A stretch of 64,000 bases of DNA from Akkermansia sp. Lineage in GTDB: Bacteria > Verrucomicrobiota > Verrucomicrobiia > Verrucomicrobiales > Akkermansiaceae. The stretch lies in assembly GCF_020860705.1 (NCBI RefSeq), contig NZ_JAJBTT010000044.1:9204-73203 (forward strand), given 5' to 3'. Positions 1 to 55,781 of this stretch are shown piece after piece; within the stretch, counting starts at the first letter, position 1, and each line of letters opens with the position of its first letter. The position numbers and the translations under genes were made by a program. The notes below the pieces were generated by a model. That model did no database searches. It was not told the DNA's origin and saw only the letters and a list, made by a program, of their open reading frames with translations.

Positions 1-191
1 TTTCCGTATCCCCTAATAGGAACAATTTTTTCATTGGAGGGTTGACACATTTAGACTCTTCAATCATAATCCCGATGTCTAGAGAGTGTTCCTCTCTTTC
101 TTATGTACTCACTTAATTGTTACAGTTCAATTATCCTTTATAGGTGTTTGAATTAGATAATAGTTATTTGTGGTACTTATAGATGAACGAT

Positions 192-222
192 GTCGCATCC
201 TTACGGATGTGTGGATTGAAAC
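192..222 (+). repeat. Solitary, slightly degenerate copy of the CRISPR repeat used in the array at 54580-55781
   Basis: gtcgcatccTtacggatgTgtggattgaaac matches the array consensus gtcgcatcctcacggatgcgtggattgaaac at 29/31. One change is in the hairpin loop and the other turns a G:C pair into G:U, so the stem-loop is kept. No intact partner repeat at -65 or +65 nt. Confidence 0.85.
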
Positions 223-256
223 CTATTGGGGGAAACGGATAAAAGAGAAAGATGCT

Positions 257-293
257 CTGCCCAGCTGAATTAGTGTCAGCTGGGCAGTTCTTT
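257..293 (+). terminator. Rho-independent terminator-like hairpin downstream of the solitary repeat
   Basis: Perfect 12-bp stem ctgcccagctga / tcagctgggcag (257-268 / 276-287), 7-nt loop, then ttctttat. Confidence 0.6.
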
Positions 294-651
294 ATGTCGG
301 AATTATATTATTTTCCAATAGTCCAGTTGACGAAGTAGAACTGACAAGATCATAGAGAATTAGTAGGCTTGACAGAAGTACGGATAAAGAGCATCGTTTA
401 ATCCGTTCTGCCCATTCAGGGCGGAACTACGGTAAAAATAAGCAAGATGAATCCCCTGTTCCTGCAAGGTCGTCTATTGCTACTTCTCGGACGGTAGTCC
501 GTGAAGATATCTTGATATGCGCCGGTGAGCCGTTCCGGCGCGAGGGAAGTAAACGGCTGGTCTTGATTTTGCGTCAAAGGAATGATTCCGGAAGAGGAAC
601 GTATTCCGTGCGCAGTTTCCAAAGGAATGAACCTTTAACATTTTTACTGTA

Positions 652-2480: not shown

Positions 2481-3371
2481 TTGTTCATTCTAACGAAAGT
2501 TAAAACTATAAGAAAAACATTATTAATATGTACCTGCGGTGTAATGATAGGTTCCGCATCTGCGGCCTCACTTGTCTGGAATGGGGGAGAATCCGGTGCA
2601 TGGGGCACGGCCGGAAACTGGATTGATAGCGGTACGGGCAGCGCACCGGCCTCCGTCCCATCCGGCAATATAAGTGCTGCCGCTGCCAATACGTATACTC
2701 TGAACGGGCATGTGAATATTACCGAAGGCAGTATGTTCAATAACGGCAATCAGACTATTGTCATCACCAATGGTTCCTCCGTGACGCTGTCCGATGCGAC
2801 GGCCAACGGTACGGCCAGGAGGTTTGACGGCGTATTCCATATTGAGGAAGGATCTACTCTTACCGTGGGCACCTCCTATTTCTACGGAGCTTCTCAAATT
2901 TACGGGACTCTGATCGTTTGTACCCAATTCGCCCCCCAGGAGGGGTCCTCCCTGGACTTTGGCTTCTCCGGCATTATGAAGCTTTCTACCTCCAATACCT
3001 ATCACGGAATGGAGGGGAACGGACGCACTACGAGCATCAGCGCCACGCTGGATCTTGGTACGGGTTCCAATTACGAAGTGGTTCGGCGCCAATTGTTTGA
3101 TTTGAACGGCGTTACGGATTTCGATCTGAACAAATGGGGTAATCCGTGGCAAGTTACTGCCGGAACGATCCAGGGCACAAATGGAGAGGCGCTGACGGCT
3201 GCGGATGGAGACCTTGTAGCCGGAGCCGATACGCTGGGCCAGTACAAACTGGTGCTGGATGCGAAAGACGGGTTGTACATTGATTACGTGGCGGCAGTTC
3301 CGGAACCAGCCACCGCCTCTCTGAGCCTGCTGGGAATGGCCGTTTTAATGATGCGCCGCCGCAGGGCCTGA
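2481..3371 (+). CDS. Secreted PEP-CTERM-anchored protein
   Basis: N-terminal signal-like segment. LVWNGGESGAWGTAGNW resembles autotransporter-associated beta-strand repeats. C-terminus VPEPATASLSLLGMAVLMMRRRRA is PEP motif + TM helix + Arg cluster. Confidence 0.8.
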   Translation: MFILTKVKTIRKTLLICTCGVMIGSASAASLVWNGGESGAWGTAGNWIDSGTGSAPASVPSGNISAAAANTYTLNGHVNITEGSMFNNGNQTIVITNGSSVTLSDATANGTARRFDGVFHIEEGSTLTVGTSYFYGASQIYGTLIVCTQFAPQEGSSLDFGFSGIMKLSTSNTYHGMEGNGRTTSISATLDLGTGSNYEVVRRQLFDLNGVTDFDLNKWGNPWQVTAGTIQGTNGEALTAADGDLVAGADTLGQYKLVLDAKDGLYIDYVAAVPEPATASLSLLGMAVLMMRRRRA

Positions 3372-3493: not shown

Positions 3494-4324
3494 ATGAAGA
3501 CCGCTCTCTTTTACCTTTCCTGCGCTGCGGCGTTTGGCGTTTTTCCGGCGGGCGCCGCATCGTACTGCATTGACTTCGGTCCCTTGAGTTCGGCAGCGTC
3601 TTACAAATATATTTCCACGACCAAGTTGCAGGGGTGGAACAATGTGGCTTTTTCCTCAGACCAGACAAAGACGGGGGATATTACTTTTTCGTCCAATTAT
3701 TACGGAGGGGACAAGGACAAGACGCATGAAAATGCATCCGGGAAGGAGATCATTGTTTACAGTACGGAGGGAGCCGGGCAGAGCATTACCATGTCCGGCG
3801 TTAAAAACGGCTCCAGCGGAAATCTGTCCATGATTGGCGGGAGCGGTTTCGCCTACGCCCCGGATTCCCTGTACAAGAAATTTGATCCGGCAGCGGATCT
3901 GACGGTCATGCCTTCCACGGCCTATCAGGATTTCGTCACGGCCGACCATGGAGCCAGCTTTACGCTGACTTTTTCCGGACTGGCCGCGGGCGTGTATCAT
4001 ATCTCTCTGGCGGCAGGGCGCACTTACGCCTCCGGAGGAACGGCTCCGGGAGCCTCCTATTCGTTAAACGGAGTGAACCGTACCATTGCCGGGAATGACG
4101 GCGCGGCCGGCCAGTATGCAGGCATGCTGGAATGGCAGGAAATGGAAATAGGGGAGGATGGGACGCTGACACTCACGGTGAGCGGCCTGTATGATGAAAG
4201 CAAGGGAGAATGGAGCAGCGCCGCCCTGAACGGTCTGGTCATGATGCAGGTTCCCGAACCCTCTGCGGCCTTCCTGAACCTGCTGGGAATGGCCGGTCTG
4301 GCGTTCCGGCGCAGAAGGGGGTGA
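3494..4324 (+). CDS. Secreted PEP-CTERM-anchored protein (second, tandem)
   Basis: Signal peptide MKTALFYLSCAAAFGVFPAGAAS. C-terminus VPEPSAAFLNLLGMAGLAFRRRRG. Start chosen at the Met preceding the signal peptide (ORF opens at 3419). Confidence 0.8.
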   Translation: MKTALFYLSCAAAFGVFPAGAASYCIDFGPLSSAASYKYISTTKLQGWNNVAFSSDQTKTGDITFSSNYYGGDKDKTHENASGKEIIVYSTEGAGQSITMSGVKNGSSGNLSMIGGSGFAYAPDSLYKKFDPAADLTVMPSTAYQDFVTADHGASFTLTFSGLAAGVYHISLAAGRTYASGGTAPGASYSLNGVNRTIAGNDGAAGQYAGMLEWQEMEIGEDGTLTLTVSGLYDESKGEWSSAALNGLVMMQVPEPSAAFLNLLGMAGLAFRRRRG

Positions 4325-7754: not shown

Positions 7755-9113
7755 TCATTCCGCCGTCAATTCATACGCCATGGCGTCCGTTACGGTGACT
7801 GTGGCGAATTCGCCTACGGGCAGCGTGAGGGGAACGGAAACAGTTCCGTCAATGTCCGGGGCGTCCCATTCCGTTCTGGCAACGCCGGGAGCGTCCACCA
7901 GGACGCGGATGTTTTTGCCGATCTGTTCCTGGCCCGTTTCCGAGGCAATGCGCGTCAGCAGCAGGGTGGCCTCATTATACCGTCGCGCCTTGGTGCGGTG
8001 GTGCACCTGGTTGGGCATCTTGTAGGCTTTGGTGCCTTCCTCCCGGGAGAAGGTGAAAATGCCGGCCCGTTCAAAGCGGAACTCCTCAATGAATTCCATC
8101 AGTTCCTGATGGTCGTCTTCCGTTTCTCCGGGGAACCCGGTGATGAAGGTGGTGCGGATGGCTATTCCCGGAACGGCCTTCCGGATGCTTCTGAGCAGGT
8201 TGCGGATGTAGTCCCCGTCCGTGACGCGCTGCATGGCGCTGAGCATGTTGTCGGAAATGTGCTGGAGGGGGATGTCCACATAGCGGGCCACCTTGGGGCT
8301 TTCCGCAATGGCGGCGGTCAATTCATCGCTCCAGTGGGCGGGGTGGGTATAAAGAAGCCGGATCCAGAATTCCCCTTCAATGGCGTTCAGGGCGCGGATC
8401 AGGGAGGCCAGGGACTCCCCGCGGGAAGAATCCACCGCGCTGCGGCGGTTAGGGCGCGCGTCCGTCCATTTGTCCATGCCGTAATAGGTAATGTCCTGGG
8501 CGATGAGGCAGATTTCCTTTACTCCGGACCGGATGAGGGCTTCCGCTTCATTCACCACGTCCTGCTGGGAGCGGCTGCGGTGGCGTCCCCGGATCATGGG
8601 GATGATGCAGTAGGCGCAGCCGTGGTTGCAGCCTTCCGCTATCTTGATGTAGGCCGTGTGCGGCGGGGTGAGGCGGTAGCGCGGCGTTTCCCAGTCCGGC
8701 ACGTACTTGCACTTGCCTTCAATAAAGTTCCGCTCCGGCGCGGTGCGGTTCATCACCTCCGTGATGATTTCCGGCAGCCTGGTGATCTGGTCCGGGCCGA
8801 TGAAGGCGTCCACCTCCGGCAGCAGGGCGGGCAGTTCCTTCTGGAAACGCTGGGACAGGCAGCCCGCCACAATCAGCTTCTGGTTTTCCGGATAGGCGCC
8901 GCTCTCCCGGGCGCGCACGACGTCCAGAATGGCATCAATGGCTTCCTGCTTGGCCTGGTCAATGAAGGCGCAGGTGTTGACCACCATCACATCCGCCAGT
9001 TCCGGCTCCGGGGTCATGGTCATGCCGGCCTTCTGCAGGTGGCCGATCATGATTTCAGAATCGATCAGGTTCTTGGGACAGCCCAGGGAAATGAGTCCAA
9101 CGGTGAGAGGCAT
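7755..9113 (-). CDS. rimO: Ribosomal protein S12 methylthiotransferase (radical SAM, MiaB family)
   Basis: VGLISLGCPKNLIDSE N-terminus, radical-SAM CNHGCAYC motif, C-terminal TRAM-like segment; 452 aa. Confidence 0.9.
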   Translation of the reverse strand: MPLTVGLISLGCPKNLIDSEIMIGHLQKAGMTMTPEPELADVMVVNTCAFIDQAKQEAIDAILDVVRARESGAYPENQKLIVAGCLSQRFQKELPALLPEVDAFIGPDQITRLPEIITEVMNRTAPERNFIEGKCKYVPDWETPRYRLTPPHTAYIKIAEGCNHGCAYCIIPMIRGRHRSRSQQDVVNEAEALIRSGVKEICLIAQDITYYGMDKWTDARPNRRSAVDSSRGESLASLIRALNAIEGEFWIRLLYTHPAHWSDELTAAIAESPKVARYVDIPLQHISDNMLSAMQRVTDGDYIRNLLRSIRKAVPGIAIRTTFITGFPGETEDDHQELMEFIEEFRFERAGIFTFSREEGTKAYKMPNQVHHRTKARRYNEATLLLTRIASETGQEQIGKNIRVLVDAPGVARTEWDAPDIDGTVSVPLTLPVGEFATVTVTDAMAYELTAE

Positions 9114-9139
9114 GGCAGTGAATGGAAAGCGTGATGAGG

Positions 9140-10576
9140 TCAGTCCCCGGAGGGGGATTCGTCCTTGACGACGACGAGGTCGAACGGGCGGATATCCACG
9201 ACGCGCACAGGGGTACCCTTAATGAGTATGCCTTGTCGAGAGAAAACCTCGCATATTTCGCCATGGATCATGGCCTTGCCGTTGGGCTTCAGTTCCGTGA
9301 CGGCGTTCCCGCGGTCGCCTATCTGCACGCGTGCAATGCTCACCGCTTCCCCGGGGGCGCCTCCGCTGACCGTGGCGTTGGTGACGCGGCGCATCAGGAT
9401 GGAATCCGGCAGGTACTTCATCAGCACGGCAATCAGGATGGCTCCTCCCGTCAGGCCCAGGGCCAGTTTCAGCAGGGGAACGCCCAGGACCACCGCCAGC
9501 GTGTTGACGTCCTCCCATTGTCCGTCCCGGATGATATGATCCCATTCCCAGGAGCTGATCATGCCGCCGAACAGGGCCAGGAAGATGCAGATGCCGCCCG
9601 CAATGGCCGCAATGAAGGTGCCGGGGATGACGAAGAATTCCACGCACAGCAGGATGACGCCCAGAATGAGCAGGGCCGCCGTTTCATACCCGGCCAGGTT
9701 CCCCGCAATGTTGTTGCCGAAGAAGAACAGGGCGAACGCGGCAATCGCCACGATACCGCCGATGCCGAACCCCGGCGTCTTGAATTCCATGTAAATGCCG
9801 CCGATGCCCAGCAGGATCAGAATGGGGGAGGCCCAGGCGATCCAGAGGCCGATGCGTTCAAAGGCGGTGGGCTCCGCCGTGACCACGGGGGCGTCCACCT
9901 TCTCCTGGGCCAGCAGGTCCGTGACGGAGGTGGCCGTTCCCTGCGCCAGCAGGGGCCTGCCGTCATCCAGCCGCGTGGCAGCCTCCTTCCCGGTCAGGGT
10001 CAGCAGGGCGCCTTTTTCCAGTTTGACGGGGCCGAACTGCTGGTCCACGTCAGACGGAATCATCATGGCCTTCACCACTTCCGGGCGGTATCCTTTTTCC
10101 GTAACCACGGAGCGGGTGAAAGCCCAGAAGGCGCTTTCCGCCTTCTTGCGCATGACGGGGTCCATTTCCTCCCCGGAGGAGGTGATGATGCCCGCCGCGC
10201 CGATGGAGGAGACGGGCGCCATGTAAATCTTGTCGCACGCCGCGGAGATGAGGGCTCCCGCGGACATGGCCTTGGGGTTCACGTAGGCATAGGTGGGGAT
10301 GGTCAGCGGCTGGATGCTTTTCATCATCATCTCGCTGGTTTCCCAGGCCAGGCCTCCGGGCGTGTTCAGGTCAAACACCACGGCGCGCGCCTGTTCCTCC
10401 TGCGCCCGCTTCAGGATGCGGTTCATGAAACCGAAGCTCTGCTTGCTGGTCAGGGAATCCTCCCCCACGGGGATGACGACTACCTGGCCACGGAAGGTTT
10501 CCTCCGCGGCCGCCCGGAACGGGGACCCGGCAAACAGGGCCAGCAGAGCCAGCAACAGAAGGTGGATGTGCTTCAT
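9140..10576 (-). CDS. NfeD-family membrane-bound ClpP-class serine protease
   Basis: Signal peptide, ClpP-like domain (VVFDLNTPGG...MSAGALISAACDKIYM), multi-TM middle, C-terminal OB-like NfeD segment (GNAVTELKPNGKAMIHGEICEV). Confidence 0.8.
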   Translation of the reverse strand: MKHIHLLLLALLALFAGSPFRAAAEETFRGQVVVIPVGEDSLTSKQSFGFMNRILKRAQEEQARAVVFDLNTPGGLAWETSEMMMKSIQPLTIPTYAYVNPKAMSAGALISAACDKIYMAPVSSIGAAGIITSSGEEMDPVMRKKAESAFWAFTRSVVTEKGYRPEVVKAMMIPSDVDQQFGPVKLEKGALLTLTGKEAATRLDDGRPLLAQGTATSVTDLLAQEKVDAPVVTAEPTAFERIGLWIAWASPILILLGIGGIYMEFKTPGFGIGGIVAIAAFALFFFGNNIAGNLAGYETAALLILGVILLCVEFFVIPGTFIAAIAGGICIFLALFGGMISSWEWDHIIRDGQWEDVNTLAVVLGVPLLKLALGLTGGAILIAVLMKYLPDSILMRRVTNATVSGGAPGEAVSIARVQIGDRGNAVTELKPNGKAMIHGEICEVFSRQGILIKGTPVRVVDIRPFDLVVVKDESPSGD

Positions 10577-54579: not shown

Positions 54580-55781
54580 GTCGCATCCTCACGGATGCGT
54601 GGATTGAAACAATCCTTTTGCCAGGTTTTCCAAGTCAGGATAGAGTCGCATCCTCACGGATGCGTGGATTGAAACGCCTCAATCTTCAGGGTGGCTTTAG
54701 GCTTAATTTGTCGCATCCTCACGGATGCGTGGATTGAAACCACAGTCATCAAACGGAAGCGCGTTGGCTGTGAGGTCGCATCCTCACGGATGCGTGGATT
54801 GAAACCAGCGCAGGCTCAAGGTAGGTCGTGGCAAATGCTGTCGCATCCTCACGGATGCGTGGATTGAAACCTTAAAGAAAAGGTGGGCGCCCGTGAAGAG
54901 ATTGGTCGCATCCTCACGGATGCGTGGATTGAAACATCTAAAAAAACAGTTGATGGATGGCTGTCTGCTGTCGCATCCTCACGGATGCGTGGATTGAAAC
55001 AATCATATCCAGTCCTGCGCGGTTTTCCGGCGCGGTCGCATCCTCACGGATGCGTGGATTGAAACAACGGCCTTTAATACGGCTTGGGAGTGTTTAATTG
55101 TCGCATCCTCACGGATGCGTGGATTGAAACGACGATGAAGTTATAGGTGAATTTGTAGTGCGCTGTCGCATCCTCACGGATGCGTGGATTGAAACCGGGA
55201 AAACCCGAACGCACTGCCCGGCACCACGGGTCGCATCCTCACGGATGCGTGGATTGAAACGCAAACTGGCTCGTGGAAGTCCCCAGCATGCTCTGTCGCA
55301 TCCTCACGGATGCGTGGATTGAAACCCATAATCAAAAGCGTGTAATGGTATGGTCAAACCGTCGCATCCTCACGGATGCGTGGATTGAAACAAGGCATCC
55401 ATCACCAGCACGGCCAGGGCGCTCAGTCGCATCCTCACGGATGCGTGGATTGAAACTGTACCACGACATGCGCGCCTACATGGATGCACAGTCGCATCCT
55501 CACGGATGCGTGGATTGAAACAACCTTGATGCCGACCCGGAGCCAGACCCTCAGGTCGCATCCTCACGGATGCGTGGATTGAAACGCTCCAACACAAGAT
55601 GGACCAATGTATTATTGCAAGTCGCATCCTCACGGATGCGTGGATTGAAACGGCGAAATTGTACTGGGCGCTGTCCACTCCATCCGTCGCATCCTCACGG
55701 ATGCGTGGATTGAAACCAACGGGGTTGCAACGGGGGTTCCCAGCTCTTGCGTCGCATCCTCACGGATGCGTAGGATGGATG
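54580..55781 (+). CRISPR. CRISPR array, type I-C-like repeat; 19 repeats, 18 spacers
   Basis: 31-nt repeat gtcgcatcctcacggatgcgtggattgaaac, 18 identical copies plus a 3'-degenerate terminal copy at 55751-55781 (..gcgtaggatggatg). Spacers are 33-35 nt and all different. The repeat has a 7-bp stem (cgcatcc/ggatgcg) and the GTGGATTGAAAC tail typical of I-C repeats. Orientation follows from the tail and the degenerate distal repeat. Confidence 0.97.

Follow-up and report, generated by a model that had tools for sequence, protein, structure and literature searches.

What does a single CRISPR repeat do when it stands on its own in a chromosome, followed by one spacer-sized segment and a hairpin instead of a second repeat? 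The question is raised by the left end of the window, the 64,000-nucleotide stretch of Akkermansia DNA analysed here (C16:9204-73203 of an assembly of 3.07 Mb in 54 contigs; this genome is referred to as G000). A preliminary description of the window had left two answers standing, namely a minimal or collapsed array next to cas genes that might lie just beyond the left edge, and a crRNA-like regulatory RNA. The second is strongly supported by a TTC-flanked target of the guide and by guide/target pairs that co-vary between species. With a probability of roughly 0.85, we read the solo repeat as part of a gene for a crRNA-like regulatory RNA (crlRNA) that represses a divergent DUF3892 gene via Cascade. 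The crlRNA gene appears to be part of a self-contained cassette of ~1 kb between recJ and leuA, the features of which are collected in Table 1.

Table 1. Features of the cassette and of the related array. Positions are those of the window unless the contig (C16) is named.
Feature	Position	Strand	Remarks
Right part of the 981-bp low-G+C islet	1..410	.	whole islet C16 8633-9613, 39% G+C
Left part of the islet, outside the window			contains the DUF3892 ORF, its promoter-like element and the antisense small-RNA candidate
DUF3892 ORF	C16 8719-9090; conserved ATG at 9000 (9000-8719)	-	Pfam E = 1.6e-8
Antisense small-RNA candidate	promoter C16 9032-9060, hairpin 9120-9153	+	50-170 bases left of the window
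DUF3892 promoter-like element	-35 C16 9196-9191, -10 9173-9168	-	read by eye
Target (protospacer) nt 1-19	19 down to 1	-	nt 20 at C16 9203, one base left
PAM 5'-TTC-3'	20..22	-	GAA on the plus strand
Putative crlRNA promoter	42..70	+	TTGACA, 17 nt, CATAAT; 11/12 consensus matches (consensus scan)
Small hairpin in the predicted precursor leader	81..97	+	terminator-like in the scan
Repeat-like element (PsiR)	192..222	+	stem-loop 194-211, handle TGGATTGAAAC 212-222
Predicted Cas5c cut	between 211 and 212	+	inferred from type I-C processing (10.1101/2024.12.27.630466)
Pseudo-spacer (PsiS)	223..256	+	34 nt; target pairing restricted to nt 1-20
3' hairpin with T-tract	257..295	+	terminator; substitutes for the stem-loop of a second repeat
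Orphan CRISPR array	54580..55781	+	repeat closest to the solo repeat; cas genes not adjacent

The solo repeat (window 192-222, plus strand) has the sequence GTCGCATCCTTACGGATGTGTGGATTGAAAC and agrees at 29 of 31 positions with the array repeat of window 54580-55781. One substitution, C11>T, falls in the loop and the other, C19>T, turns a G-C pair into a G-U pair; the 7-bp stem folds despite both, and the 11-nt 3' part, TGGATTGAAAC, is unchanged. The pseudo-spacer that follows (window 223-256) is 34 nt long, which is also the modal spacer length of this array, and runs into a hairpin (window 257-287) with a perfect 12-bp stem and a 7-nt loop, then TTCTTTAT. These features bear out the preliminary description, which had noted the 29/31 match, two differences that spare the hairpin and the handle, and a 34-nt tail before a perfect 12-bp terminator hairpin. 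Its remark that window 1-191 is AT-rich, like a CRISPR leader, holds for the composition (33% G+C vs 56% for the genome) and fails for the likeness: the segment forms the right half of an islet of 981 bp with low G+C, and was rejected as a leader. Outside arrays, window 192-222 is the sole copy of the repeat in the whole 3.07-Mb assembly, and no second repeat with six or fewer substitutions occurs near it. An Rfam search over C16 8600-9900 gave no match close to the gathering score. The TTGACA of the predicted crlRNA promoter is also found in G007. The crlRNA precursor is predicted to start just before a small hairpin with a T-rich tail (window 81-97), perhaps a 5' structure, perhaps an attenuator; hairpins resembling it were seen by eye in G066 and G125.

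A collapsed array beside left-hand cas genes is excluded by the surroundings of the repeat. The 9.2 kb to the left of the window contain a GH84 glycosidase gene, recJ and the minus-strand DUF3892 gene, and the gene to the right of the solo repeat encodes an HMGL-type synthase (leuA-like). Neither the cas1 and cas2 genes suspected beyond the left edge nor any other cas gene is present in C16 1-9203 (~9 kb to the left) or in the 54 kb to the right. The locus was also rejected as a canonical minimal array, given its single repeat and the lack of adjacent cas genes. The one type I-C cas operon of the genome is located on another contig, C40, with all genes intact, and comprises cas3-cas5c-cas8c-cas7c on one strand and cas4-cas1-cas2 on the other, a divergent layout already described for Akkermansia (PMC8278651). 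Its cas3 and cas5c genes are contiguous, 11 bp apart.

All other copies of the repeat are in arrays, on C16, C24, C27 and both flanks of the C40 cas cassette. These five arrays represent four repeat variants, which keep TGGATTGAAAC and have stems that differ by compensatory changes (ATCC/GGAT, ACCC/GGGT, TCCC/GGGA and ACTCC/GGAGT). The orphan array in the window consists of 18 perfect repeats, one near-copy and one degenerate terminal copy; because the last repeat is the degenerate one, the leader is expected on the left. Its neighbours are a TPP-enzyme (acetolactate-synthase-like) gene and a Sel1-repeat gene. Further solitary repeat units with a nearby target were not found in this genome: a loose scan for a hairpin followed by ATTGAAAC returned 95 sites, mostly spurious, and the eight best had matches at background level. 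Elsewhere in the window, two neighbouring ORFs (3297-3371 and 4250-4324) have similar tails of the form VPEP...hydrophobic...RRR, which resemble sorting signals of the PEP-CTERM type.

The pseudo-spacer has a target at the very edge of the window, 204 nt upstream of it and on the opposite strand. The target reads 5'-TTC-CTATTAGGGGATACGGAAAA on the minus strand, and the pseudo-spacer begins with CTATTGGGGGAAACGGATAA. Over guide nt 1-20, mismatches are confined to positions 6, 12 and 18, so that 17 of the 17 pairing positions match, and the pairing stops past position 20. It is established that type I Cascade leaves every sixth position (6, 12, 18) unpaired (10.1101/2024.12.27.630466), and PAM reconstruction for Akkermansia type I-C has yielded TTC (PMC8278651). 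The TTC-flanked target is unique in the 3.07-Mb genome, where the runner-up site has 10 pairing positions and no PAM. By chance, TTC with 17 matches is expected ~6e-6 times per genome and ~4e-9 times within 1 kb on either side. A PAM-flanked partial match, especially in the promoters of cas genes or of small ORFs, had been named in the preliminary description as a sign of a regulatory RNA. The match found lies in the promoter region of the small adjacent ORF; a search of the whole genome revealed no further guide targets, cas promoters included. A TTGACA hexamer occupies protospacer positions 27-32 and is followed 17 nt on by TAATAA, both pointing into the DUF3892 ORF. This promoter is absent from the consensus-scan list because its -10 element (TAATAA) is weak.

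Conservation of the arrangement was surveyed by a DUF3892 profile search over 154 Akkermansia species genomes. DUF3892 copies, intact or broken, were detected in eight genomes (8/154), and the full module layout, in which a DUF3892 gene and the target are accompanied on the opposite strand by a repeat-like element, a pseudo-spacer and a GC-rich hairpin, in seven (7/154). Across the module copies, the pseudo-spacer measures 28-38 nt and the repeat unit lies 126-229 nt from the target. A metagenome scan added the module on 3 contigs, including a relative with 90% identity and one further lineage. By contrast with Akkermansia, no repeat unit was found beside the DUF3892 genes in 80 loci of other species.

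Five distinct guides are represented, one shared by the G000/G066/G125/L114 group and the others found in G007, G026 (A. glycaniphila), G149 and L116. At its own locus, each guide agrees with the target at 14-15 of 15 pairing positions, compared with at most 12-13/15 for shuffled guides and 10-12/15 for non-cognate guide-locus pairs. The guide of G028 scored 11/15 in ungapped scoring, which is not above background, and was left out of the support. Conservation of the pseudo-spacer across strains had been raised as a further check; five guide/target pairs co-vary across species. Mismatches in the seven genome copies affect 12 of 14 cells at positions 6 and 12, as against 8 of 105 cells at pairing positions, and the target of the 90%-identical relative departs from that of G000 at positions 6 and 18 and nowhere else. 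All three metagenome copies (3/3) and 6/7 genome copies have a TTC PAM, with TTT in G007. A TTGACA -35 element is located 24-29 nt past protospacer position 1 in 5/7 copies, in agreement with the spacing published for the targets of type I-C crlRNAs (10.1101/2024.12.27.630466); in G026 the hexamer is ~64 nt away from the PAM. The 3' hairpin is present in all module copies, its form kept in three unrelated sequences.

This mismatch pattern is what selection for Cascade pairing would predict, and not what decay would. If the locus were a decay product, the solo repeat would be the functionless last repeat of a collapsed array and the promoter match either fortuitous or a relic. Such an origin would suit a single repeat with two substitutions and without adjacent cas genes, in a genome with several arrays of which one is an orphan, as well as the DUF3892 genes already broken in G066 and G125. 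It is nevertheless very unlikely in view of the chance expectation of ~4e-9 matches within 1 kb on either side, the maintenance of five distinct guide/target pairs across species and insertion sites, the limitation of drift to positions 6, 12 and 18 and the PAM-distal part, and the retention of a 3' hairpin though its sequences are wholly different.

The islet that carries the cassette is an indel, with 981 bp in G000 corresponding to ~103 bp in G035, the closest relative searched, where the DNA flanking the site is 92-93% identical to that of G000. The cassette is found between recJ and leuA in G000, G007, G066 and G125, four species whose RecJ C-termini are 97-98% identical and whose DUF3892 proteins are 34-61% identical. 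The sites in G026 and G028/G149 differ from recJ-leuA (tblastn with the recJ and leuA of G000), which makes at least three insertion sites; the G026 cassette is flanked by what look by eye like housekeeping genes. The type I-C gene cas8c is present in 7/7 module genomes vs 40/154 across the genus, a count that overstates independence and is not a formal test because the carrier genomes are kin. In the complete genomes (G007, G028 and G066), 0.7-2.3 Mb separate the module from cas8c. No integrase or other mobility gene was found in the islet.

A low-G+C, indel-type islet at variable sites, with a cargo gene that has phage relatives (phrog_8224), also brings to mind an RNA anti-CRISPR or decoy of the Racr/Cracr type, particularly as viral crlRNAs and arrays directed against type I-C loci are described in the literature. 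In that case the repeat on the islet would titrate Cas5c or Cas7c or re-direct Cascade, and repression of DUF3892 would be secondary. A decoy of this kind is quite unlikely, however, for a guide whose sole target lies within its own cassette, with no match in a cas promoter, on an islet that lacks mobility genes and has kept one chromosomal position in four species whose RecJ flanks are 97-98% identical. The restriction of the module to genomes that keep cas8c likewise speaks against a decoy.

The product of the cargo gene, counted from the start at C16 9000, has 92 aa and matches its orthologues in length; this start is ~220 bp downstream of the target. DUF3892 proteins (~92 aa) share an invariant C-terminal motif, GEKYVRSEPND..DNLL.LP. 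Their phage relatives form phrog_8224, the sole PHROGs match, to which no function is assigned. PADLOC gave no credible match for DUF3892, and a PDB sequence search gave none. The AF2 model has a pLDDT of 90; Foldseek of the model against the PDB returned no match at E<=0.001 and a wide VIA-align search reached a best Z of only 3.1, so the fold offers no functional lead. A dsRBD/HPF likeness has been proposed for DUF3892 in the literature. In addition, a report on CapH/CapP (10.1101/2022.04.27.489752, citing Burroughs & Aravind 2020) ties DUF3892 to defence by comparative genomics and places it in operons under CapH/CapP-like regulators. Judged by genomic context, a growth-arresting or defence effector is the likeliest role of DUF3892, to which we give about even odds. 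A second DUF3892 paralogue, which has an orthologue in G070, is located at C21:49020-49289 (L113 1501-1770) without a repeat unit, between a DUF2513 gene and a Fic/DOC-family gene.

A divergent pair of HTH_3 and Peptidase_M78 genes stands directly upstream of DUF3892 in 18/80 of the closest non-Akkermansia loci. These 18 loci (L026-L057 and L082) belong to Clostridia and Christensenellales, and their pairs, an HTH_3 protein of ~116-138 aa and a Peptidase_M78/IrrE-like protein of ~211 aa, lie ~300-1300 bases upstream of DUF3892. Since the Akkermansia repeat unit occupies the slot of the Firmicutes HTH + M78 pair, an RNA-guided repressor would replace the protein pair there.

The DUF3892 frame is broken by stop codons in G066 (L111) and G125 (L112), where the repeat unit, the hairpin and the TTC-flanked target are intact, as is cas8c elsewhere in the genome. 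These module copies may be decaying. As the gene is a pseudogene in both genomes, it would seem dispensable; the pseudogenes are compatible with either a dispensable or a costly gene and prove neither.

The doubt about a toxic or defensive role of DUF3892, which is putative, leaves room for another explanation, in which the loaded RNA mainly regulates itself or insulates the divergent promoters and leuA, with DUF3892 as a harmless passenger. With the PAM only 20 bp upstream of the -35 element of the crlRNA promoter (window 42-47), both promoters could come under the influence of Cascade, and the terminator would protect leuA against read-through. Yet the R-loop would run from the crlRNA promoter toward the DUF3892 -35 element in 5/7 copies, the repeat unit is invariably accompanied by DUF3892 across three sites, and in Firmicutes DUF3892 is under CapH/CapP-like repressors, which are typical guards of defence operons. 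Self-regulation as the main role is thus very unlikely.

The DUF3892 gene may be subject to a second layer of control. All seven module copies have, in the interval from the DUF3892 promoter to its start codon, a promoter-like motif on the opposite strand, consisting of an invariant TTGACATCATC, 17 nt and a TATAAG-like hexamer. About 60 nt past it there is a hairpin with a T-run, the stem of which varies by lineage but is kept. RNAalifold returned weak covariation terms for this region because indels shift the stems, and the conservation of the hairpin was judged mainly by reading each sequence. Among the DUF3892 loci compared, the motif was found solely in those of Akkermansia. These features are a candidate for an antisense small RNA of ~85 nt directed at the 5' UTR of the DUF3892 mRNA, in a layout that resembles type I toxin-antitoxin pairs.

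Taken as a circuit, the cassette could operate as follows. The crlRNA would be transcribed from its own promoter (42-70) and end at the hairpin terminator (257-295). Cas5c of the single type I-C system would cut at the 3' base of the repeat hairpin and leave an 11-nt handle (212-222) on the 34-nt pseudo-spacer. Cascade loaded with this crlRNA would read the 5'-TTC PAM (window 22-20, minus strand) and pair over ~20 nt except at positions 6, 12 and 18, a length probably too short to license cutting by Cas3. Bound in this way, Cascade would mask the divergent -35 element (protospacer positions 27-32) and keep the gene for the 92-aa DUF3892 protein silent. Loss of Cascade, or its inhibition by an anti-CRISPR for instance, would lift the repression of DUF3892.

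A wider picture can be drawn tentatively, which we rate at somewhat less than an even chance. The type I-C Cascade of Akkermansia would have a regulon beyond its own locus, in which a portable 1-kb cassette with a crlRNA gene of its own plugs a DUF3892 effector into Cascade surveillance, whatever its position in the chromosome. The RNA guide would take the place of the HTH + M78 pair, the antisense RNA would add the second layer, and loss of Cascade would lead to growth arrest or defence.

The published CRISPR-repressed modules (CreTA, CrePA, CRISIS) were all found by searches inside cas loci. Because earlier searches were confined in this way, the regulatory reach of Cascade is not delimited by them, and future searches for crlRNAs would better not be limited to cas neighbourhoods. 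The co-variation lends good support to the cassette as a candidate for an independent crlRNA circuit that is unlinked to cas, in a gut genus under medical study. The cassette also offers a handle on DUF3892, a family already suspected of a role in conflict or defence. De-repression of DUF3892 is to be expected upon cas deletion or anti-CRISPR expression in Akkermansia. If the reading is true, inhibition of CRISPR would be costly even where the safeguard is unlinked to cas.

The closest known counterparts are the type I-C solitary-repeat crlRNAs, which repress Nezha, Gabija and eight 'CRISIS' systems (Shu et al., bioRxiv 10.1101/2024.12.27.630466). They carry an 11-nt handle and a 3' hairpin and pair over 16-20 nt beside a TTC (or TTA) PAM, with positions 6 and 12 mismatched; transcription starts 37-46 bp past the target, and reporter repression is 5- to 60-fold (10.1101/2024.12.27.630466). 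The Akkermansia unit is alike in its one repeat-like element with a stem and the conserved 3' handle, in the partial pairing (~16-20 nt) at a promoter-proximal 5'-TTC site abutting the -35 element, in the mismatches at 6, 12 and PAM-distal positions, and in the 3' hairpin that takes the second repeat's place. The mechanism thus appears, by this comparison, to match that of the published crlRNAs, and would not in itself be new. In the published cases the unit fills the cas3-cas5c gap immediately ahead of cas5c and follows its cargo in tandem, whereas the Akkermansia cassette is unlinked to cas, on another contig, and divergent from its cargo. This cargo, the 92-aa DUF3892, is outside the published systems, and the host belongs to Verrucomicrobiota as opposed to mainly Neisseria. 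The preliminary description had held that nothing of the kind was known for type I-C systems in this phylum; for type I-C itself this is superseded (10.1101/2024.12.27.630466). Our literature search for such crlRNAs found no Verrucomicrobiota report and no cas-unlinked locus. New are the location away from cas, the divergent DUF3892 cargo, the phylum and the conserved antisense small-RNA candidate.

CrePA, of the type I-F system of Acinetobacter, pairs a 103-aa toxin that has phage relatives with a PAM-flanked partial match of 19 nt to a CreA guide in the toxin promoter (bioRxiv 10.1101/2024.01.05.574328), and is a precedent for such control of a small protein toxin. A small protein with phage relatives is common to both, and the CrePA ORF begins ~120 bp past the target, compared with ~220 bp for DUF3892. 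CrePA differs in belonging to type I-F, in its CC PAM, in having two repeat-like elements and in its position between cas3 and csy1; the toxin contains a KilAC domain and is proven to be toxic, whereas DUF3892 is a candidate effector. The pair of repeat-like elements of the creA type is not found in the Akkermansia unit, which has one such element and then a non-repeat hairpin.

CreTA and CreR mini-CRISPRs (types I-B, I-E, I-F and V-A) use a degenerate guide with limited pairing, which does not lead to cleavage, and create addiction to Cas. The proposed Akkermansia circuit would share with them a mini-CRISPR whose limited pairing brings the effector to a promoter. In those systems, which are embedded in cas loci, CreT is itself a small RNA and CreR acts on cas promoters, whereas the Akkermansia target is a protein-coding gene unlinked to cas. 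Racr elements, reportedly described by Camara-Wilpert and colleagues in 2023, are said to be RNA anti-CRISPRs. Racr and Cracr resemble the unit studied here as solitary repeat units beyond the CRISPR-cas locus on horizontally moving DNA. They are borne by viruses or plasmids and serve as decoys or hit the cas or creT promoters of the host, while the Akkermansia unit is chromosomal, targets its own neighbour and is found in type I-C-positive hosts.

The comparison with CapH/CapP (an HTH protein with an M78 peptidase; 10.1101/2022.04.27.489752) concerns the cargo: in both cases a divergent repressor module stands directly upstream of DUF3892. CapH/CapP represses as a pair of proteins and reacts to DNA damage, whereas the slot in Akkermansia would be filled by a Cascade-dependent RNA guide. 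Finding one cargo with a protein repressor in Firmicutes and with an RNA guide here suggests that repressor modules are interchangeable.
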